The notes beneath the pieces are model-generated. The model was given only the letters and a program-made list of their open reading frames with translations. It ran no database searches and had not been told where the DNA came from. A program made the position numbers and the translations under genes. Positions 20,545 to 30,913 of a stretch of 64,000 nt of DNA are shown piece by piece. This DNA comes from an uncultured Thermoleophilia bacterium (GTDB lineage: Bacteria; Actinomycetota; Thermoleophilia; UBA2241), in contig CAVQSP010000011.1 in NCBI GenBank assembly GCA_963715985.1, positions 64,001 to 128,000 of the forward strand, written 5' to 3'. Each line of letters begins with the position of its first letter. Position 1 is the first letter of the stretch.

Positions 20545-21195
20545 ATGAACGTCGACCTGCACACGCACACCTATCCGGCCTCGACCTGCTCTCGCATCAG
20601 CTTTCGCGACTACATCGCCTGGTGCACCGAGGCCGCCGTGGAAGCGGTGGCGCTCACCAACCACGGCGACGTCGCCGACAACCGCACGCTCGAAGGAGCA
20701 CTCGCCGCCGAGGGCGTGCTGCTCATCCACGGCGTGGAGATCAGCACGCTGTTCGGCGATTTCGTCATCTTCTCCCCCGACCTCGACTACCTGGCCACCT
20801 TCCGTGACGTGCAGGACTTCGTGCGCGCCGGTGAGCTCCGCGACGACGCCGCCATGGTGTGGGTACATCCGGCGGCGGGCGGCGGGCGCAGCGGGTCCGC
20901 CTACTACTCCGGCCTCGAGCGCATGGTGGCCGATTCCATCCACGCGGTGGAGGTCTTCAACGGCAGCTGGCTCGGCGACAAGTACGTACAGACGGCCGAG
21001 CAGATCGCCGGGCAGCTCGGCTTGGCGCGCACCGGCGGCAGCGACGCCCACGACGCCGCGGAGCTGATGGCGTGCTACACGGAGCTGCCCGACCCCATCC
21101 GTTCCACGGCGGACGTCGTGGACGCACTGCAGCGGGGCCACACGATCCCGCACCGCCGCGAAAGGGTCAAGCGGCGACGGTTCGGCATCTTCTAG
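20545..21195 (+). CDS. PHP-domain metal-dependent phosphoesterase
   Basis: DLHTHT, TNH, GVEI, HP, EVFNG, GGSDAH motifs. Confidence 0.9.
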   Translation: MNVDLHTHTYPASTCSRISFRDYIAWCTEAAVEAVALTNHGDVADNRTLEGALAAEGVLLIHGVEISTLFGDFVIFSPDLDYLATFRDVQDFVRAGELRDDAAMVWVHPAAGGGRSGSAYYSGLERMVADSIHAVEVFNGSWLGDKYVQTAEQIAGQLGLARTGGSDAHDAAELMACYTELPDPIRSTADVVDALQRGHTIPHRRERVKRRRFGIF

Positions 21196-21203
21196 GAGGC
21201 GGC

Positions 21204-21602
21204 GTGAGCACGTTCGAGGTTCGTACAGACCACCGCGTGGTGCTCGTCGACATCACCGCCCAGGTGCAGACGGCGGTGGCCGACAGCGATGCACAGGACG
21301 GCGCCGTGCTGGTGTACGTGCCGCACACCACCGCCGCCGTGACCATCAACGAGGCGGCCGACCCATCGGTGCGCGCAGACATCGCCATGGCGATGGAGAG
21401 GCTGGTACCGTCCGACCTCCCCTTCAGGCACCTCGAGGGCAACTCCGACGCGCACGTGAAGGCCAGCCTCTTGGGCAGCAGCGTCACCATACCGCTCGCC
21501 GGCGGGCGCCTGCTGCTGGGCGCCTGGCAGGGCGTGTACTTCGCCGAGTTCGACGGGCCGCGCCGCAGGCACGTCACGGTCAGCGTGCTCGCGGCGCGCT
21601 GA
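21204..21602 (+). CDS. yjbQ: YjbQ/UPF0047 family protein
   Basis: HTTAAVTINE, HLEGNSDAHVKASL, LGAWQGVYFAEFDGPRRR; GTG 21204 after AGGAGG. Confidence 0.92.
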   Translation: MSTFEVRTDHRVVLVDITAQVQTAVADSDAQDGAVLVYVPHTTAAVTINEAADPSVRADIAMAMERLVPSDLPFRHLEGNSDAHVKASLLGSSVTIPLAGGRLLLGAWQGVYFAEFDGPRRRHVTVSVLAAR

Positions 21603-21652
21603 GCGTCGCTTCTCCTCCGTCCGCGCCGCACTGCCGCGGCGCCGACCGCGCC

Positions 21653-23156
21653 TCAGCGCCCCAACACGCGCTCGAAGAGGTGCTCCAGGGGGTCGGTGCA
21701 CAGGCGGCCGCCGCCGTGCTTGAGCAGGAGGCGCTCGGCCGGCCAGTGCTGCCCGTCTGACCACATCTGTCTGAGCCAGGCGGTGGCCTCCGGCTTGCGG
21801 AACCAGTCCATTCCGTGGCGGTCCTGCAGCATCATGCGGAAGTGGCCCTCGAGCATCCACGCGCGCAGGTACTCGGCGCAGTAGAAGGCGTCGTCCACGT
21901 CCACCAGGTAGTTCTCGGGCGGCACGTCGACCTTGATGGCGGCGCTGAGCTTGCGGCTGTACACGCCGGCCACGGCCGCGAGGTCGCCCGAGCGCGCGAT
22001 GGAGCTCGGTCTCGTAGGAGAGCTTGGCCGCGTAGCGGCGGATGAAGTACAGGTCGCACACGGCGGCGAAGCGCAGGTACCCGGACGAATCCGTGAACCC
22101 GAGGATCTCCTCCAACCAGCGGGCATTGAGGACGAGGTTCTGCATGGTGAAGGCGAAGCCCTCGGTGACGGCGTTGTCGCCGAGATGCCGGTACTCGAAC
22201 GGCAGCCCGGGATCGGTGTGCGCGAAGTGCTCGGTGTGGCCGGCCTCGTGGAAGAGGGCGCCGTAGTCGTCCTGGCCGCCGTGCGGGAGCACGACCAGGT
22301 AGATCTCGCCGGGCACCCTGACGGGAGCACAGAAGGCCCGCGGCGACTTGAGCGGCCGGACCTCGGTGTCGAGGTGGACGTTGGTCTGCGCATCCAGGTC
22401 GATGCCCATGCCGGCCAGCGTGTCGCGCAGCGAGGGCACCAGCCGCTCCGATGTGAAGACCTCGTCGAAGACCGGCGCCCGCCACAGGTAGGGCAGATCG
22501 GCGAACGTGAGCTCATCGAGCGTGAGCCCCAGACGTTCGCGGGTGAGCTTGTCCATGGAGCGCTCGTACACGCCCTCGGTCTTGGCGAGAAACGCCTCGA
22601 GCTCCGCGCGCAGGTGCAGGTAGTCGTGCCCCTTCACGGTCGAGTAGAGCTCCATGTAGTCGGGATAGCCCAGGCCCACGGCCAGCGCGTGGCACTCGCC
22701 CCACATCCGCAGGAGCAGGGGGTTGAGGTGCTCCGCCGTGGCCTCGAGGCGGGCCTTCTGGATGCGCGCCCGCCGGTCCCGGTCGGCCTCGTTGGCCTGG
22801 ACGACGCCGGCCTGGCGCAGGCCGATGGGCTCGCCGTCGACCTCGATGGAGAGGCCGCCCTCGGTGTTGGCGATCTCGTCGCCGAGGAGCCTGGTCTCGC
22901 CGCCCAGGTAACCGTCCACCGCGAAGGTGACGAGGTAGGCCAGCTGGCGCTTGGGCTCGAGATCGGCGGTGGCCTCGTAGAGAGCGTCGAGCTCGAGGAC
23001 GGCGTCGCGCGTGAAGAGCTCTGGGAACCGCTCGTAGACGGCCGCGGTGTCGCAGACGGGCTTGCGCCCGGAGAAGTGCTCGTAGTACTCACGGTCGAGG
23101 GCGTCCATGAAGTCCTCGGCGCGGCGGCGATACGTCTCGAGATCGAGCGCGGTCAC
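21653..23156 (-). CDS. M3/M32-like gluzincin metallopeptidase (apparent frameshift near 21995)
   Basis: KSPRAFC, FHEAGHTEH (HExxH), downstream VTEGFA; C-terminus (FYCAEYLRAW) in the next frame; GTG 23156 with AGGAGG. Confidence 0.75.
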
Positions 23157-23360: not shown

Positions 23361-24749
23361 ATGCCGCCGCGCCCCGGAGACACCCTCGACCTCGACATCA
23401 CCACGCTCGCCTACGGCGGGCAGGGTGTGGCGCGCGTGGACGAGTTCGTCGTGTTCGTGCGCGGCGCCGTACCGGGCGACCGTGTGCGGGCCCGCGTGAC
23501 GCGCCGCAAGAAGAGCTACGCGGAGGCGCGGATGCTCGAGCTTCTCACCCCTTCGCCGCGCCGCGTGGCCCCCGTGTGTGGCCACACCGCGGACTGCGGC
23601 GGGTGCGAGTGGCAGACGCTGGCCTACGAGGCACAGCTGGAGTTCAAGCAGCAGCAGGTGGTGGAGTCGCTCACGCGCCTCGGGCACCTGGACGGCTACG
23701 AGCTCGAGCCCATCCGCGGCATGGCGGAGCCCTGGCGCTACCGCAACAAGATGGAGTTCTCGTTCGGCGAGGACGACGACGGCCGCCTGCTGCTGGGCCT
23801 GCACCGTCGCGGCTCGTGGCGCGAGATCGTGGAGACCACCGACTGCCTCCTCGCCTCGGAGCGCATGAACCGGGCGCGGCAGGCGGTCGCCGACGAGTGC
23901 CGCGCCCTCGGCCTCAAGGTGTTCGGGCGCGAAGGCCACGAGGGTCTCCTCCGCCACCTCGTGGTCCGCGAGAGCCTCTCCACAGGCGACCTGCTGCTCA
24001 ACCTCTTCGTGGCGGCGCGGTTCCCGGAGGAGGCGGCGCTGGCGGAGCGCGTCGCCGCCGCCTGCGGCTGCACGTCGTTCGCCGTCACCGTGAACGACAC
24101 GCCGGCGGATGCCGCCGTGGGCGACGGCCCACACATGCTGCTGGGGCCGCCGTTCATCCGCGAGCGCCTCGCCGGCGTCGACCTGCACGTGCCGGCGACG
24201 GCCTTTCTGCAGACCAACAGCGCCATGTGCGATGAGCTCTACACCGTCGCGCTGCGCTTCGCCGAGCCCGACCCCGCCAGACCGGCGGTCGACCTCTACT
24301 GCGGCATCGGTTCGCTCAGCCTGCCGCTGGCGCGTCGCGCCGCCTCGGTCCAGGCCGTGGAGATCCAGCAGGAGGCCGTGGTGGCCGCCCGGGAGAACGC
24401 CGCGCTCAACGCCATCCGCAACGTCGAGTTCCACGCTCGCGACGTGAGGCCCCTGCTCAAGTCCCCTCCCCACGCCACCCTGGACGCCGCGCGCGCCAAC
24501 GACCTCGCGCGGCCCGCGGTGGTGCTGGTCGACCCGCCTCGCGCAGGCCTGGCGCGCAAGGCCCTGCAACGTGCCGCGGCGCTGGGCGCGGACCGCTTCG
24601 TCTACGTGTCCTGCAACCCCACCACGCTGGCCGGCAACGGGGCGGAGCTCGCCGAGCTCGGATACCGGCTCACGCGCGTGGCGCCGGTGGACATGTTCCC
24701 GCAGACGCACCACATCGAGACGGTGGCGCTCTTCGTGCGTGAGAGCTGA
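23361..24749 (+). CDS. rlmD: 23S rRNA (uracil-1939-C5)-methyltransferase RlmD
   Basis: TRAM domain, CGGC Fe-S motif, YRNKMEF, FLQTN, DLYCGIG, VDPPRAG, YVSCNPTT, DMFPQTHHIE. Confidence 0.95.
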   Translation: MPPRPGDTLDLDITTLAYGGQGVARVDEFVVFVRGAVPGDRVRARVTRRKKSYAEARMLELLTPSPRRVAPVCGHTADCGGCEWQTLAYEAQLEFKQQQVVESLTRLGHLDGYELEPIRGMAEPWRYRNKMEFSFGEDDDGRLLLGLHRRGSWREIVETTDCLLASERMNRARQAVADECRALGLKVFGREGHEGLLRHLVVRESLSTGDLLLNLFVAARFPEEAALAERVAAACGCTSFAVTVNDTPADAAVGDGPHMLLGPPFIRERLAGVDLHVPATAFLQTNSAMCDELYTVALRFAEPDPARPAVDLYCGIGSLSLPLARRAASVQAVEIQQEAVVAARENAALNAIRNVEFHARDVRPLLKSPPHATLDAARANDLARPAVVLVDPPRAGLARKALQRAAALGADRFVYVSCNPTTLAGNGAELAELGYRLTRVAPVDMFPQTHHIETVALFVRES

Positions 24750-24769
24750 GGGGCCCCTTCAGGCGTGAC

Positions 24770-25528
24770 TCAGGCGGCCGCCCGCGGCGCGCGCAGCTTG
24801 GCGAGCAGCAGATCGGCGTTCACGGCCAGGAAGGCCACGGAGAGCAGCGGCAGCGCCGGCAGCGCCGTCCACCACATGGCGGCGGCGATGGTGCCCAGGA
24901 ACGAGGCGATCATGGCCACCGCACTCCACCCCGTACGCAGGCCGAAGCGCTGCGCCGTGCCCAGGTACAGGGCGAAGAAGATGACGTCACTGATGCCGAG
25001 CCCGGTGAACGCGTCGCGGTAGGAGTACCCCGCCCAGCTCACGGCGACGGTGAAGTAGCCGACCACCACCGGGCCGTGACCCAGAAGCGCCTTGGTCGGC
25101 CCCGCTGCGACGCTCACGACGTCCACGACGGCGGACACGACAGCCACCACCACGATCCAGCTGAGGCGCTCGAGCTCGTCGGCGATCCAGATGCCGAGCG
25201 CCGCCGCCGCGACCACCTTGGCCACGTTGGCGAACGGCACCCACCCCAGCCATACGCAGAGCACCGCGACGGGCAGCGCGACAACGGCCAGCAGCGGCAG
25301 GCGTCGTCCGAGCCGCCGCAGGGGCAGCATCCCCCACACGAGCACGCCCATCAGGGCGAGCACGATGAGAGACGACAGCATGATGTCCACGCGCACCGGC
25401 GGGGACGGCAGAACGTATGAGAACGACGTCCAGAGGATGAGCGCAGCGGCGGCCACGAACGCCGGCATGAGAGCCGCAGCGAGGGGCGCGCGGCCCGTCT
25501 GGGGCCCATCGGGCGGCGGGCCGCTCAC
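24770..25528 (-). CDS. Polytopic membrane protein with presenilin/SPP (peptidase A22)-like motifs
   Basis: About 8 hydrophobic segments; SAVVDVVSVAAGPTKALL, GLGISDVIFF and TALPALPLL in presenilin order. Start (GTG 25528 or ATG 25469 region) uncertain. Confidence 0.65.
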   Translation of the reverse strand: MSGPPPDGPQTGRAPLAAALMPAFVAAAALILWTSFSYVLPSPPVRVDIMLSSLIVLALMGVLVWGMLPLRRLGRRLPLLAVVALPVAVLCVWLGWVPFANVAKVVAAAALGIWIADELERLSWIVVVAVVSAVVDVVSVAAGPTKALLGHGPVVVGYFTVAVSWAGYSYRDAFTGLGISDVIFFALYLGTAQRFGLRTGWSAVAMIASFLGTIAAAMWWTALPALPLLSVAFLAVNADLLLAKLRAPRAAA

Positions 25529-25541
25529 GGAAGTGCCGGGC

Positions 25542-26141
25542 TCAGTACGGCGGGATGTTGTCGTACCAATCGCCGAGCCGCCGGAAGGCACGCCAGAAGG
25601 CGGCCTTGAGACGCTGCTCGTCGAGCGACGCATCGATGTCCGGCGTGACGAGCACCTCCGTGCCCGGCGTGAGCTCCACGATCTCGCCGGGCTTGTACTC
25701 CACGGTGCGCGCGAGCGGCACTTCAGCGGCGTTGAGGGCCGCCACCGTCTCCTCCCCCATCGCGACGATGAGCTTGGGACTGACGATGGCGAGCTCGCGA
25801 CGCAGGTGGTCGAGGCACTTGGCCTCGGGCTTTCCGCGCACCTCGCCGCACTTCACGACGTTCGTGCCGTAGAGCTGCAGGGGGTCGATCTTGAGACGCT
25901 GGCAGCTCTTCATGAGCGCGGTGCCGGAGCGCCCGAAGAAGGCGACGCCCTCGTGCAGCTCGGACGGGCGCGCCTGGTACTTGAGCATGAAGATGTCCGC
26001 CATGGGGTGGCCGGACCCGATGACCGGCATGGTGCGCGCGTGACTGCAGCGGGAGCACCTCAGGATCTCGCCGGTGAGCTCGTTGATCTCCGAGATGGCT
26101 CTGGTCAGGTACTTGTCGTAGATCTCGTTGGGTTGCGCCAC
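25542..26141 (-). CDS. Uracil-DNA glycosylase superfamily protein (family 4-like)
   Basis: CSRC, VIGSG, FFGRSG, TNVVKC, CLDHLRRELAIVSPKLIVAMG; catalytic motifs look diverged. Confidence 0.8.
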   Translation of the reverse strand: MAQPNEIYDKYLTRAISEINELTGEILRCSRCSHARTMPVIGSGHPMADIFMLKYQARPSELHEGVAFFGRSGTALMKSCQRLKIDPLQLYGTNVVKCGEVRGKPEAKCLDHLRRELAIVSPKLIVAMGEETVAALNAAEVPLARTVEYKPGEIVELTPGTEVLVTPDIDASLDEQRLKAAFWRAFRRLGDWYDNIPPY

Positions 26142-26242
26142 GCGATTCCTCGATTCGGCGTGTCCGCTTGCTAGTTCGCGCCGTGCTCGTGAAGTCCTCG
26201 GATTCCGGCAGCAACTGCCGGGGGTCCTGGATTATACGCGCG

Positions 26243-28138
26243 TTATGCAGGGGAATCATCCTGCCCGGTGCTGCGTCCGGGCCCACTCATGGTGGTCTGG
26301 ATGAACTTGAGCGATTGCAGGTAGATGAGGCTGCGAGGGCGGCGCACGATGCGGCTCTCGGCGAGGGCCGCGACGAAGTCGCCCGGCCCGGTGAAGTCGT
26401 CGATGCCGCACATGGCGGTGCCGATGCCCGGCAGCACGTGCGAGTCGCTGCCGGCGGCGGCCGGGATGCGGTACCGCTGCGCGAACTGCTCGGCGAGCTC
26501 GTTGAAGCCGGGGAACGCGAGCCGCGAGTTGAAGACCTCCATCACGTCGAGGTCGGCCACGTTGGCGCGCAGCACGGGCGGCGCCGGGATGGTGTGCAGG
26601 CGGTCGAACGGGTGCGGCACGTAGACGACGCCGCCTTGCTCGCGGATGGCGGCGATGGTGTCCGCGAACGTCATCCCCCCGGGGATGGTGCGCTCGAGGA
26701 ACAGGCCGATGACCTCGCCCTCGCTGGACTTGACCTCCTCCCCCACGATCACGCGCACGCCGTAGCGGTCGGCGATCTCGCGCGCCTCCAGCCCGCCGGC
26801 GGCACTATCGTGGTCCGTGATGGCGATCACGTCGAGGCCCACCTCGCGGGCACGCTCGAGGATGTCGGCCACCGGCATGGCACAGTCCTTGCTGTGGTGC
26901 GAGTGCACGTGGAAGTCGGCGAACAGCTCGCGCTGCTGCCGGCGGCGCCGCGGCAGCGGCTGGCGGCGGCGGCGAGCCACCTCCTCGTACACGTCTTCAG
27001 TCTCGGCAGCCACGCGGTCCCAGTCGTAGCGGCGCACGGTGCGTGACGCCTCGTCGGCGAGCCGGCCGCGAAGTCCCGGCTCGTCGAGCAGGCGCCGCAC
27101 GGCCGCGGCCAGCTGCTTCGGCTGCCGCGGCGTGACGAGCAGGCCGTTCACCTGGTGGCGCACGACCTCGTCGTAGCCGGGCAGCCGGGAGGCCACCACG
27201 GTGGCTCCTCCGGCCATCGCCTCCAGCAGGGACACGGCCGCCGTCTCCGGGCCCAGCGAGGGCGCGCAGAAGGCGTCCGCGCGCCCGTACAGCTCGGGCA
27301 TGTCCGCGTCCGGCACGCGCCCGAGAAAGGCGACGCGGCCCGCGAACGCCGGGGGCACCAGCCGCGCGTACCGGCGCTCCTGACGGTCGGCGCCGCACAC
27401 GTCCAGCGTGAGCTCGGCCGCGCGGTCGTCCAGGTAGCGCAGCGAGCGCAACAGCACCCCGAGGCCTTTGCGGCGTGACTCGACGCCGGCGAACAGCAGG
27501 CGCAGAGGGCCGGGCTCCCTGCCGTCGCCGGCCCCGAACCGCTGCAGGTCGATGCCCGGCGGGATGACCCTGTACGCGCCCGGGAAGGTGACCGCCGCCG
27601 CGTCGCGCGTGGCCACCGAGGAGGCGATCGCGGCGTCCAGCGAGTCGAAGAGGCGACGCAGCTTGGGCCGCGTGGCGAGGAACGGCGCCGTCCGCTCCGG
27701 GTTGGCGTGGAAGGTGGCCACCAACGGGCAGCCGGCGTGGCGCAGCGCGGTCCAGCCCAGGCCGGGCACGAACGGCTCGTGCAGGTGCAGCAGGTCCAGG
27801 TCCTCGGCCTCGAGCAGGACGTCGATGTTGGCGATGAGGTCGGCAGGCGCCGCGATCAGCTTCAGCGAACGGCTCTCCCGCACCGCATACGTGGCGCCGG
27901 CGAAGAAGTAACGCGGGTACGGCTCGTCGGGCAGGAAGACCGTGTCGCGCTCACCGGTGAGCACCGCCTGGACGCGCCGGCGGGCCTCACTCACCGCCTG
28001 GCCGTCGGAGCTCGGCGCGATGACGGTGACGCGGTGGCCGCGCGCAGTGAGCCGCTCCACGAGGGACTCCACCTGGCGATTGACGCCCGAGGGTGTGGTC
28101 CACAGGAACGGCGTGAGGATGCCTATCTTGTGCGTCAT
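26243..28138 (-). CDS. PimA-like GT4 glycosyltransferase fused to a C-terminal PHP phosphoesterase
   Basis: HLHEP, PLVATFH, RRKG, E-x7-E (ETAAVSLLE) as in PimA; then DFHVHS, TDHD, GEEV, PHP, EVFN, GSDSH. ATG 28138 lies 7 nt after TACCAT. Confidence 0.88.
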   Translation of the reverse strand: MTHKIGILTPFLWTTPSGVNRQVESLVERLTARGHRVTVIAPSSDGQAVSEARRRVQAVLTGERDTVFLPDEPYPRYFFAGATYAVRESRSLKLIAAPADLIANIDVLLEAEDLDLLHLHEPFVPGLGWTALRHAGCPLVATFHANPERTAPFLATRPKLRRLFDSLDAAIASSVATRDAAAVTFPGAYRVIPPGIDLQRFGAGDGREPGPLRLLFAGVESRRKGLGVLLRSLRYLDDRAAELTLDVCGADRQERRYARLVPPAFAGRVAFLGRVPDADMPELYGRADAFCAPSLGPETAAVSLLEAMAGGATVVASRLPGYDEVVRHQVNGLLVTPRQPKQLAAAVRRLLDEPGLRGRLADEASRTVRRYDWDRVAAETEDVYEEVARRRRQPLPRRRRQQRELFADFHVHSHHSKDCAMPVADILERAREVGLDVIAITDHDSAAGGLEAREIADRYGVRVIVGEEVKSSEGEVIGLFLERTIPGGMTFADTIAAIREQGGVVYVPHPFDRLHTIPAPPVLRANVADLDVMEVFNSRLAFPGFNELAEQFAQRYRIPAAAGSDSHVLPGIGTAMCGIDDFTGPGDFVAALAESRIVRRPRSLIYLQSLKFIQTTMSGPGRSTGQDDSPA

Positions 28139-28176
28139 GGCGTTCATGGTACAGCACGCCGCCTGCCGCGAACGCG

Positions 28177-28264: not shown

Positions 28265-29368
28265 CTACCCCTGGCAGACGGCGGTGGCGCCCTTGCCCTC
28301 GCCGGCGATGAACTCCTCGGTCATGCGCCGGCACTGGTCGTCGGGGTGCTGCACCGGCGGCGACTTCATGAAGTAGCTGCTGGGCGCCTCGAGCGAGCCG
28401 GCCAGACCGCGATCAAGGCCGATCTTGGCGCAGCGCACGGCGTCGATGACGATGCCGGCGCTGTTGGGCGAGTCCACGACCTCGAGCTTGAGCTCGATGT
28501 TGAGCGGCACGTCGCCGAAGGTACGACCCTCCATGCGGATGTAGGCCCACTTGCGGTCGTCCAGCCACTCCACGTAGTCGCTGGGCCCGATGTGCACGTT
28601 CTTGGCGCCCATGTCGTAGTCCAGCTGGCTGGTGACGGCATTGGTCTTGCTGACCTTCTTGCTCTCCAGACGCTCGCGCTCGAGCATGTTGAGGAAGTCG
28701 GTGTTACCGCCGACGTTGAGCTGGCTTGTGCGCTCGAGCTTCACACCGCGCTCGCGCATGAGCCGCGTGAGCACGCGGTGCACGATAGTGGCGCCCACCT
28801 GGCTCTTGATGTCGTCGCCGATGATGGGCACGCCGGCCTCGACGAAGCGCTTCTGCCAGTACGGCTCACGGGCGATGAACACGGGGATGCAGTTCACCAT
28901 GGCGCAGCCGGCGGTGAGGATCTGCTCGGTGTACCACTTGGTGGCCTCTTCGCTGCCCACGGGCAGGTAGTTGACCACCACGTCCGCCTGCGTCTCCTTG
29001 AGGATGCCGACGATGTCGGCGGTGGCGCCGGGCGCCTTCTCGATGATCTGCGAGAGGTACTTGCCGAGCCCGTCGTGGGTCATGCCGCGCACCACCTTGA
29101 CGTCCTTCTTCGGTACCTCGGCGAACTTGACGGTGTTGTTGGGCTTGGTGAAGACGGCCTCGCTGAGGTCCTTGCCGACCTTGTTCTTGTCGATGTCGAT
29201 GGCCGCCACGAACTCGATGTCGCGGATGTGGTAGCCGCCGACCACAGGGTGCATGAGGCCGGGCACGAAGTCGGTCTTCTTCGCGTTCTTGTAGAACTCC
29301 ACGCCCTGCACGAGGGACGATGCGCAGTTGCCCACGCCGATGATGGCGACGCGTACCGGGTTACCCAA
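28265..29368 (-). CDS. ino1: Inositol-3-phosphate synthase
   Basis: [48 protein letters not shown]. Confidence 0.97.
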
Positions 29369-29490: not shown

Positions 29491-30117
29491 TCAGGGGCGC
29501 CCGGCGTCCACGCGCCGGAGCTTGCGCATGACGTGCAGCATGCGCTGCAGCACGGTGAGCGAGGTGAGCGCGGCGAGCAGCCAGATGAACCAGACGAGGA
29601 CGCTCGTGCCTCCCAGGTCCCACCCCGAGAGCACGAAGCCGATGCCCAGACCCACGAGACGCTCCGGGCGCGACATGAAGCCCACCTTGCAGTCCACGCC
29701 CAGCGCCTCCGCACGCGCCCTCGTGTAGGAGACCATCTGCGAGGCGCCGAGGAACAGCAGAGCCCCACCCGCGGTCCACCACTGGTCCTGGCCGGCGAAG
29801 TAGATCGTCAGTGCGCCGGCCACCAGCAGCTCGGAGATGCGGTCCGTGGTCGAGTCGAGAAAGGCGCCGGCCTTTGTGGGACCTGCGCCGGCACGCGCCA
29901 CGGCGCCGTCGAGCGCGTCGCAGATGCCCGCGAGGACACCCAGAGGGACGGCCCAGACGAAGTGGCCGGTGAGCACGAGCGGCACGACGCCGGCCTGCAA
30001 CAGCAGGCCGAAGTACGTGAGCATGTCGGCGGTGACGCCGCGCTGTGCGAGCACGACGCCCACCTTGAAGAAGCCGCGGCGCGCGCCGTCGGTGTAGCGG
30101 GTCTTGAGGTTTGCCAC
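29491..30117 (-). CDS. pgsA: CDP-alcohol phosphatidyltransferase (phosphatidylinositol-phosphate synthase-like)
   Basis: DALDGAVAR...GAFLDSTTDR signature, SYTRARAE, RPER; adjacent to ino1. Confidence 0.88.
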   Translation of the reverse strand: MANLKTRYTDGARRGFFKVGVVLAQRGVTADMLTYFGLLLQAGVVPLVLTGHFVWAVPLGVLAGICDALDGAVARAGAGPTKAGAFLDSTTDRISELLVAGALTIYFAGQDQWWTAGGALLFLGASQMVSYTRARAEALGVDCKVGFMSRPERLVGLGIGFVLSGWDLGGTSVLVWFIWLLAALTSLTVLQRMLHVMRKLRRVDAGRP

Positions 30118-30118
30118 G

Positions 30119-30913
30119 TCAGCCGTCGCGCTCGCGCACGCGGACCGTCTGGAGCTCGCGAGTCTCGCCGGGCTGGAGGCTGACGGCCAGCGCCCAGGCA
30201 GCGGCCACCACGAGGACGCTGCCGAAGGCGTCCACGATGAAGTGGTTGCCGGTGGCGACGATGACCACCAGCACGAGGGCCGGGTACAGAAAGCCACCCC
30301 AGCGCAGCCAGCGCTGCCGCGCCAGCATGAAGACGACGAGTGCGATGAACAGCGCGTAGGCGAAGTGGAGGCTGGGCATGGCCGCGAACGGGTTGGCGAG
30401 CAGACCGTTCTCCAGAATGGCCGGGCGCTTGCCGTGCATGTAGCTCATGTCGACGATGCCGGCGGTGAAGATCATGCGTGGCGGCGCCGTGGGCAGGAGG
30501 AAGTACAGCAGCACGGCCATGAAGTTGATGCCGAGGAACCAGTTGCGGATGAGCTTCCACTGGCTGCGGCGCTGCGTGAACACCCAGACCATGGCGCCCA
30601 TGATCAGCGGAAGATGCAGGGCGCCGTACGCCCACACCATGAACCCCATGGCGCCGGGTATGGAGCTGACGTGGCTCTGCACCCACGGCTCCACGTAGAT
30701 GTGCATGGCCTTCTCGAGGTTGAGGAAGAAGAGGCCGTTGGCCATCGCCGTCGCCTCGCGCCCCACGACGACCGCCCGGGACACGTCGTAGACGGCGTAC
30801 AGGGCGAGCATGATGAGGCCCTGGCGGAGCACGTCTTCGCCGCCGGAGCGGGCGAACGAGAAGCGGGCGTCGTCGAGAAGACGCCCGACAGCGGGCTTCA
30901 TGCGGCCGTTCAC
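30119..30913 (-). CDS. PAP2_3 / Aur1-Ipt1-like lipid phosphotransferase or phosphatase
   Basis: PTAPPR, NPFAAMPSLH, TGNHFIVD motifs in a polytopic membrane protein. Confidence 0.85.
   Translation of the reverse strand: MNGRMKPAVGRLLDDARFSFARSGGEDVLRQGLIMLALYAVYDVSRAVVVGREATAMANGLFFLNLEKAMHIYVEPWVQSHVSSIPGAMGFMVWAYGALHLPLIMGAMVWVFTQRRSQWKLIRNWFLGINFMAVLLYFLLPTAPPRMIFTAGIVDMSYMHGKRPAILENGLLANPFAAMPSLHFAYALFIALVVFMLARQRWLRWGGFLYPALVLVVIVATGNHFIVDAFGSVLVVAAAWALAVSLQPGETRELQTVRVRERDG

Follow-up and report, generated by a model that had tools for sequence, protein, structure and literature searches.

A presenilin-like gene in a Thermoleophilia genome

The window analysed here is a 64,000-nucleotide (nt) stretch of contig CAVQSP010000011.1 (positions 64,001 to 128,000, assembly GCA_963715985.1) from an uncultured Thermoleophilia bacterium, and it carries on its minus strand a gene for a small polytopic membrane protein that resembles presenilin. 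This presenilin-like gene, hereafter PSL, spans 24770..25528 (-), stop codon included, and encodes 252 amino acids (aa) from a GTG codon at 25528. The public gene call for this protein (P0001, 252 aa) is 100% identical to the window PSL and uses the same GTG start, which sits 14 nt past the stop codon of the upstream UDG-like gene. The longest open reading frame (ORF) of the gene extends further upstream, to an ATG at 25633 (24770..25633, minus strand, 287 aa). When the sequence was read by eye, no obvious Shine-Dalgarno motif was seen before GTG 25528 or before an ATG near 25468; PSL residues are numbered here from GTG 25528 as a provisional start.

The PSL translation contains the segments SAVVDVVSVAAGPTKALL, GLGISDVIFF and WTALPALPLLS. 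An earlier note on this DNA, made from the sequence alone, had listed these three motifs in presenilin order, with the two aspartate codons at 25123-25121 and 24988-24986, and all of them are placed exactly as it claimed. The first aspartate (Asp136, or Asp1; codon 25121..25123) lies in the fifth predicted transmembrane (TM) helix and aligns with Asp257 of presenilin 1 (PS1). Gly143-Pro144-Thr145 (25094..25102) aligns with the Gly-Pro of the PS1 segment ...CPKGPLR... and marks the start of a short helix similar to TM6a of presenilin. The second aspartate (Asp181, or Asp2; codon 24988-24986) closes the GxxD motif Gly178-Ile-Ser-Asp181 (24986..24997), which is located at the start of predicted TM6 and aligns with PS1 G382-L-G-D385. 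Pro224-Ala-Leu-Pro227 (24848..24859), the PAL motif, stands directly before the last TM helix and aligns with the PALP of PS1. All four elements are read from the minus strand.

The PSL region has a G+C content of 70-73%, so long ORFs on the opposite strand are to be expected; homologues are known solely for the minus-strand frame. Scanning 24500-26400 for consensus sites revealed nothing resembling a promoter or a terminator, and the 20-nt gap between PSL and the downstream RumA gene folds no better than shuffled sequence. Contigs from an RNA-library run, which holds a small share of the sampled sequence words, cover the neighbouring genes and the 3' end of PSL, with no contig over 24885-25511, although contigs of this kind cannot show absence. 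The host genome is a 4.35-Mb assembly in 22 contigs (88.8% complete, 7.3% contamination) in which PSL is single-copy, and 19 DNA runs with a wetland or soil metagenome label contain no less than half of the sampled words.

Conservation across the PSL family

A word-indexed protein search returned 458 PSL homologues at E<=1e-3; the 120 that are listed carry no Pfam domain, and the only name given to any of them is 'hypothetical protein'. When all of 1.84 billion cluster representatives were searched, 342 matched at E<=1e-3, 124 of them at E<=1e-10. We aligned 47 full-length representatives (27-66% identical) and extended this alignment to 73 sequences, likewise 27-66% identical to the window protein, by adding 26 more divergent ones. 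A search with the 47-sequence alignment restricted to longer proteins gave no match, which counts as weak evidence only. Six residues (D136, S139, G143, P144, G178 and D181) are invariant in all 47 sequences and still so in all 73, which bears out the conservation of the two aspartates that the earlier note had made a point of checking. A further twelve positions are kept in at least 90% of the 47 (G112, A129, V140, T145, F184, L197, R198, P224, A225, L226, P227 and N237). Across the larger set, T145 is retained in 69 of the 73 homologues and the residues of the PAL motif, P224, A225, L226 and P227, in 71, 68, 71 and 70, respectively.

Among the 93 representatives with 215 aa or more, pattern matching recovered all three motifs in 71; in the remaining 22, one or more of the patterns did not match. 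PALP is present in 64 of the 71 motif-bearing representatives, in which Asp1 and Asp2 stand a median of 42 residues apart and Asp2 and PAL a median of 44. The residue before Asp1 is mostly valine in these 71 (V48, A8, I7, S3, T2, F1, M1, L1). The residue before Asp2 in the 73 homologues is proline in 31, serine in 22, threonine in 15, alanine in three, and valine and glycine in one each. The earlier note had described the presenilin GxGD motif as GxSD here, which holds locally (the window protein reads GISD) and fails for the family as a whole, where the motif is Gx[P/S/T]D. The family also has conserved polar residues of its own, namely K104 in TM4 (64 of 73, with arginine in six more), R198 (70), N237 (65) and D239 (63).

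Sequence relationship to presenilin

To place PSL among proteins of solved structure, we searched family profiles against all Protein Data Bank (PDB) chains. The hidden Markov model built from 47 sequences matched ten sequences at E<=10, eight of which are presenilins (PS2 at 1.7e-7; PS1 at 7.2e-6 to 1.7e-3); the other two are polyketide synthase (E 0.06-0.07). With the 73-sequence profile, the presenilin matches strengthened to E=2.5e-11 for PS2 and 2.9e-10 to 6e-8 for PS1, and the next non-presenilin was at E=0.21. The match is a single stretch that places profile positions 25-216 on PS1 158-441 (TM3 to TM9) with an HMMER bias of 0.0. Within it, VD-x2-SV-x2-GPT is aligned with PS1 YDLVAVLCPKGPL, LG-x2-D-x2-F with LGLGDFIF, and LPALP with LPALP. 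A phmmer search of PDB chains with the window protein by itself gave no match.

The relationship is also detectable, weakly, in the reverse direction. The Pfam Presenilin model (PF01080) matches nine of the 47 members at E<=1 (best E 0.0011), and its match to P0152, from a sister subfamily, reaches E=4e-4 and covers positions 159-392 of the 408 in the model. A precomputed PF01080 match is present in one of the 120 listed relatives of P0198, from the same sister subfamily. On this profile evidence the PSL family is homologous to presenilin over PS1 TM3 to TM9. The earlier note had proposed a presenilin/SPP-type (A22-like; SPP, signal peptide peptidase) polytopic protein in an actinobacterium, and this proposal stands, given that the profile matches only presenilins significantly and with the motifs in register.

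Neighbours of PSL in the ESM-Atlas are bacterial hypothetical-protein clusters, mostly from Actinomycetota, with scores of 0.96-0.97. At a score of 0.88 there is a cluster of ~339-aa proteins automatically named 'Signal peptide peptidase domain-containing protein' (61% Bacteria, most commonly Actinomycetota), and PF04258 is annotated in 24% of its 115 members. Bathyarchaeota clusters appear at 0.89 and 0.86. We treat the clusters at 0.86-0.89 as leads only towards SPP and archaeal proteins.

Predicted fold and membrane orientation

An AlphaFold2 model of PSL based on the 47-sequence alignment was obtained with high confidence scores (pLDDT 93.0, pTM 0.89). It has eight TM helices (residues 21-39, 45-66, 68-94, 97-118, 122-142, 179-194, 199-217 and 226-246), in which D136 and D181 fall in consecutive helices (122-142 and 179-194), D181 is near the start of its helix, and the PAL motif lies just ahead of helix 226-246. 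HMMER pairs TM2-TM5 of PSL with TM3-TM6 of PS1, so one N-terminal presenilin helix is without a counterpart. The placement of presenilin strands beta1 and beta2, which pair with the substrate, is known from substrate-bound structures. The PSL model contains a beta-hairpin (160-164/174-178) immediately ahead of GxxD, which we read as a predicted counterpart of the two enzyme strands that bear these names in passages of a presenilin study (PMC10290658). Two modelled short helices (144-151 and 153-158) follow directly after GPT, where the short helix of PSL matches TMD6a of presenilin, delimited in the same passages as L268-R278 (PMC10290658).

The model was compared with the PDB using Foldseek. 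The first 16 rows listed (ranks 1-14, 16 and 17) are all A22 structures, comprising 12 PS1, two SPPL2a and two PSH (presenilin/SPP homologue) chains, with E-values of 4.9e-3 to 0.23 and probabilities of 0.80-1.00. GPCR and other structures come after the A22 rows with probabilities of at most 0.16, and for the GPCRs the ceiling is 0.12. The comparison of an AlphaFold model with presenilin and PSH, which the earlier note had put forward as a check, was therefore favourable in its ranking, though the E-values are weak. Taken by itself, the Foldseek result is consistent with a presenilin fold for the modelled protein and does not prove it.

Membrane orientation was assessed from the distribution of positive charges. 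The mean number of lysine and arginine residues is 2.1 at the N-terminus, 2.0 in loop 2-3, 2.4 in loop 6-7 and 3.5 at the C-terminus, and low on the other side (0.36 in loop 1-2, 0.04 in loop 3-4 and 0.47 in the PAL loop). By the positive-inside pattern, both termini would be cytoplasmic and the Asp1-Asp2 loop and PAL motif would be outside. SPP has the reverse orientation to presenilin, and we infer that the orientation of PSL is SPP-like and not presenilin-like. Natural fusions of the PSL domain have their soluble domains at the C-terminus, namely a calcineurin-like Metallophos_2 domain in the P0170 cluster (14 members on several contigs, 478-481 aa) and a glyoxalase-like domain in P0139 and P0156. 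These fusions, and a beta-sandwich that some relatives carry in the Asp1-Asp2 loop, fit a cytoplasmic C-terminus and an external loop. The term 'gamma-secretase-like' used in the earlier note overstates the likeness, because the inferred orientation is that of SPP. Both models also have eight TM helices, not nine.

The relatives with an inserted beta-sandwich form a sister subfamily (P0198, P0152, P0171, P0193 and P0205, ~335-367 aa), in which the sandwich of ~100-140 residues lies between the helices that bear the putative catalytic aspartates. The insertion site is the position of the large loop of presenilin, and P0152 has a weak Pfam fn3 match. Forms with and without the inserted sandwich, long and short, occur among close relatives. 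The model of one member, the 334-aa P0198 (pLDDT 95.2), has the same eight helices with a beta-rich insertion of ~120 residues between the Asp1 and Asp2 helices, and in both AlphaFold models the Asp1 helix is the fifth.

Evidence for and against an intramembrane protease

We are highly confident of the homology of PSL to presenilin and of a fold of the presenilin/SPP type. We also consider it fairly probable that PSL is an active protease. Our preferred reading, which we consider probable overall, is that PSL is a minimal stand-alone bacterial relative of the presenilin/SPP superfamily (MEROPS A22) that acts as a di-aspartyl intramembrane protease.

Under this reading, PSL would cleave without a cofactor, with one aspartate activating water and the other polarising the scissile carbonyl, and the substrate would be an unwound TM helix held beside the hairpin. 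Given an SPP-like orientation, the expected substrates would be N-in (type II) helices, and candidates would include leftover signal peptides or signal anchors.

A number of results weigh against this reading. The window protein has no family over threshold in Pfam (the only match, to DUF4077 at E=0.58, is at chance level) and no match in NCBIfam. PF06550, PF01080 and PF04258 match nothing in the whole host genome at E<=1; PF06550 matched in three of 14 control genomes, Haloferax and Methanosarcina included, and was over its cut-off in two. The comparison with these three families suggested in the earlier note thus came back below threshold, for the PSL protein as for its genome. PF04258 was likewise over its cut-off in none of 301 genomes of the phylum. 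Neither the 47- nor the 73-sequence profile has a sequence match to PSH or SPPL2a in the PDB. Foldseek returned nothing at E<=1e-3 for the PSL model (best 4.9e-3, with TM-scores of 0.47/0.39, 0.47 by query length). For the P0198 model, the matches are all C2/Fn3-like beta-sandwiches (E ~1e-2), with no A22 structure among those listed; the inserted beta-sandwich took over these matches, which neither support nor contradict the assignment of the TM core. At the level of single residues, the canonical GxGD is present in two of the 71 motif-bearing representatives and its second glycine in one of the 73 homologues, the tyrosine of the YD motif is found in none of the 71, and K104, N237 and D239 have no counterpart in the presenilin alignment. 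GxGD is called family-defining for A22 in passages of one source (PMC9282858), and passages of another report that replacing PS1 G382 or G384 with larger residues virtually abolishes activity (PMC10290658). Among 121 genomes of the class there is also no anti-correlation between PSL and SppA (PF01343), which is over its cut-off in three of them, all three with PSL; in the 14 control genomes PF01343 matched in 11 and was over its cut-off in 10. The class is mostly without SppA whether or not PSL is present, so complementarity lends no support to the signal-peptide idea. Because of the departures in GxGD, YD and predicted TM number (nine in A22, with Asp1 in TM6 and Asp2 in TM7) and because it stays below the curated thresholds, PSL is a divergent relative rather than a plain A22 member.

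How far these departures undermine the relationship itself can be judged against the possibility that PSL is unrelated to A22, either as a hydrophobic protein with chance or convergent motif likeness or as a GxGD enzyme of the A24 type. The lack of a curated family match and the Foldseek E-values above 1e-3 are what such a reading would draw on. Chance likeness is hard to reconcile with E=2.5e-11 at zero bias over one alignment of ~190 positions that holds all three motifs, and A22 structures alone lead the fold search. As for A24, Peptidase_A24 (PF01478) has no match to the window PSL in Pfam at E<=10, and both aspartates of PSL are in predicted TM helices, as opposed to the soluble regions described for A24 in passages of PMC2947513. 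We regard an unrelated origin as extremely unlikely.

The same departures raise the prospect of a protein that kept the fold and lost the chemistry, that is, an inactive pseudo-protease serving as a presenilin-fold scaffold or chaperone that would bind TM helices without cutting them. The second glycine of GxGD, needed in presenilin according to passages of PMC10290658, is proline, serine or threonine in 68 of the 73 homologues, which is the main point in its favour. Both aspartates are, however, invariant down to 27% identity, as would not be expected after a loss of catalysis, and we consider this alternative very improbable.

Taxonomic distribution and gene neighbourhood

By profile search, 21 of the 401 genomes sampled across the phylum carry PSL, as do 66 of the 121 sampled within its class, where it is present in 19/20, 17/18, 19/20, 5/20, 3/11, 0/20 and 0/8 genomes of the individual families. 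In the phylum sample, a family of another class (f19) has PSL in eight of 31 genomes. The 55 related loci retrieved from species-representative genomes are nearly all from metagenome-assembled genomes titled Thermoleophilia, Gaiellales/Gaiellaceae, Actinomycetes or Actinomycetota. One locus (L017), on a 3.8-kb contig titled Deltaproteobacteria, keeps the GT4/PHP-UDG-PSL-RumA order, with identities of 69-91%; this short contig is probably mis-binned.

In the window, the minus-strand gene order is CDP-alcohol phosphatidyltransferase, Ino1, GT4-PHP, UDG-like and PSL, after which RumA follows in convergent orientation. The earlier note had placed PSL downstream of inositol-lipid and UDG genes, and this order recurs outside the window. 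The UDG-superfamily gene (25542..26141, minus strand, 199 aa; PF03167 at E=1.1e-10) is upstream of PSL on the same strand in 53 of the 55 related loci, within 600 bp in 50 of them. RumA (23367..24749, plus strand, start approximate), an RNA uracil-5-methyltransferase of the RumA/TrmA type with PF05958 and TRAM matches, is convergent downstream of PSL in 53 of the 55 loci, with a stop-to-stop gap of 20 nt in the window. The gene upstream of UDG encodes a 634-aa fusion of a GT4 glycosyltransferase with a C-terminal PHP phosphoesterase (PHP/PHP_C; 26243..28147, minus strand), and a match to it was found in 52 of the 55 loci. It is preceded by the gene for inositol-3-phosphate synthase, Ino1 (28265..29368, minus strand; PF01658), which matches TIGR03450 at E=1e-166 with 554.5 bits, under the 638-bit cut-off. 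The first gene of the series encodes a CDP-alcohol phosphatidyltransferase (29491..30297, minus strand; PF01066) that is best matched by models for phosphatidylinositol-phosphate (PIP) and archaetidylinositol-phosphate synthases (NF040950 at 2.2e-38 and NF045883 at 1.1e-35, both under cut-offs). The joining of a glycosyltransferase to a phosphatase beside Ino1 and a PIP-synthase-like gene suggests that, in an inositol-lipid or inositol-glycoside pathway, this one protein carries out two steps.

The UDG-like protein is unusual in its own right. Its scores with the NCBIfam UDG models all fall far below the cut-offs, the best being 52.9 bits where 250 are required, and where UDG family 4 has GE[A/G]PG it carries GSGHP. 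It is perhaps something other than a standard DNA glycosylase. P0285 (538 aa, sister subfamily) reads as a UDG-PSL fusion and is the one such protein among the 32 in its cluster. On the other side of RumA, a conserved minus-strand ORF at 21195-23150 has a zinc-protease-like HEAGH (HExxH) motif and no Pfam or NCBIfam match at E<=1e-3; in most related loci it comes after RumA (38-77% identity).

This neighbourhood is the ground for an alternative in which PSL has a presenilin fold and a different job, as a membrane enzyme or transporter for inositol phospholipids or their precursors, for example in lipid-phosphate hydrolysis or head-group handling, with the two aspartates serving a non-peptide substrate. 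In the related loci of the class, PSL comes after the CDP-alcohol phosphatidyltransferase-Ino1-GT4/PHP-UDG-like cluster, although gene order inside one class may just be inherited. The main support is the recurrence of the link in a second class: in four of six f19 loci, a same-strand gene for a 200-aa CDP-alcohol phosphatidyltransferase lies no more than ~1.1 kb upstream, and Ino1 and GT4 are absent; an AI-2E transporter gene adjoins this phosphatidyltransferase in the two loci checked. The other two f19 loci have a MalT/LuxR regulator as neighbour (with a hybrid histidine kinase too in the one checked), which argues the other way. The fusion of the PSL domain to a calcineurin-like phosphoesterase in a 14-member cluster, the loss of the GxGD glycine and YD tyrosine, and the family's own conserved intramembrane lysine, asparagine and aspartate would all suit a lipid substrate. 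In contrast, five genomes of the class without PSL retain part or all of the upstream cluster together with RumA: the CDP-alcohol phosphatidyltransferase, UDG and RumA are present in all five, Ino1 and GT4/PHP in four, and the interval between UDG and RumA holds unrelated ORFs or nothing. The cluster therefore does not need PSL. The retention of all three presenilin motifs with their spacing, of the TM6a-like helix and of the hairpin before Asp2 also speaks for proteolysis, and no A22 member is known to us to act as anything but a protease. We consider a lipid role rather unlikely, and a functional coupling of PSL to PIP synthesis, as a conserved neighbour in two classes, distinctly doubtful. 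An intramembrane protease remains our preferred interpretation of the gene.

Three f19 loci (L058, L060 and L061) have an ORF of 104-180 aa without a Pfam match between the CDP-alcohol phosphatidyltransferase and PSL. The L058 spacer gives a weak tblastn match to the window UDG-like protein (35% identity, E=2e-7), and the ORF called there is on the other strand.

Significance of a bacterial presenilin relative

Presenilin/SPP proteases are described as eukaryotic with ancestral archaeal forms in passages of two papers (PMC9282858, PMC2947513), and the corresponding parts of reviews of archaeal membrane proteases tabulate an archaeal A22 homologue and none from bacteria (PMC9263693, PMC4343526). 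Phrase searches for a bacterial or prokaryotic presenilin found no paper, in a search that did not cover the phylogeny of Raut, Glass and Lieberman 2021 (Proteins 89:232), and 'presenilin-like protease' returned eukaryote-focused papers only among the matches listed.

Tentatively, PSL could represent the first bacterial clade of true presenilin-type proteases, autonomous, with eight TM helices in ~240 aa, native to and vertically inherited in one class of Actinomycetota, nearer by sequence to eukaryotic presenilin than PSH is, with a Gx[P/S/T]D active site of a kind not tolerated in presenilin itself and an SPP-like outward-facing orientation. If this is true, PSL would be the most compact presenilin scaffold in nature, and with it A22 would be represented in all three domains of life; a bacterial presenilin family would bear on where this type of protease arose. 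As a protease, it would join S2P, rhomboid and prepilin peptidase as a fourth kind of bacterial intramembrane protease, in a lineage of soils and wetlands in which SppA is absent from nearly every sampled genome. A protein of this size, probably cofactor-free, would offer a small scaffold for studying the structure and mechanism of intramembrane aspartyl proteolysis. The family is also a natural experiment on GxGD, with proline, serine or threonine where presenilin needs glycine. Presenilin is the catalytic core of the Alzheimer-linked gamma-secretase, and bacteria may have their own version of it.

Comparison with known systems

Presenilin is the only significant match of the PSL profiles among solved structures. 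The two share Asp1-x2-[S/A]-V-x2-4-G-P, G-x-x-D-x-x-F and L-P-A-L-P as well as the Asp2-PAL spacing, and the TM6a-like helix and the strands ahead of Asp2 are also found in the PSL model. They differ in size, presenilin having ~450-470 aa and nine TM helices whereas PSL has ~240 aa and eight predicted ones, with one N-terminal helix fewer. Presenilin has a long cytosolic loop that the PSL subfamily of the window lacks, its active-site motifs are YD and GxGD where those of PSL are VD and Gx[P/S/T]D, and its membrane orientation is opposite to the one inferred for PSL.

In its predicted orientation PSL is closer to SPP/SPPL (A22B, PF04258), for which the C-terminus is likewise cytoplasmic and the Asp1-Asp2 loop outside, and cofactor-free working of the SPP kind would be expected for PSL too. 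SPPL2a appears at Foldseek ranks 4 and 9 for the PSL model. PSL has neither YD nor GxGD, however, and the similarity to SPPL2a is one of fold ranking and not of sequence matches to the PSL profiles.

The archaeal PSH (MCMJR1; PDB 4HYG, 4Y6K; PF06550) is like PSL prokaryotic, small and stand-alone, with two aspartates on adjacent TM helices, and is found at Foldseek ranks 14 and 17. Passages of PMC2947513 describe it as having nine TM helices, YD162, GXGD220 and PPL instead of PAL. PSL shows the converse combination, a strict PALP with non-canonical aspartate motifs.

Finally, the A24 prepilin peptidases and FlaK, enzymes of bacteria or archaea, share with PSL a polytopic architecture, a pair of aspartates and a GxGD-type motif. 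Neither FlaK nor PilD is among the Foldseek matches listed for the PSL model. Their aspartates are described as lying in soluble regions several TM domains apart, and their cleavage as taking place outside the membrane, in passages of PMC2947513. In PSL, by contrast, both aspartates are inside predicted TM helices.

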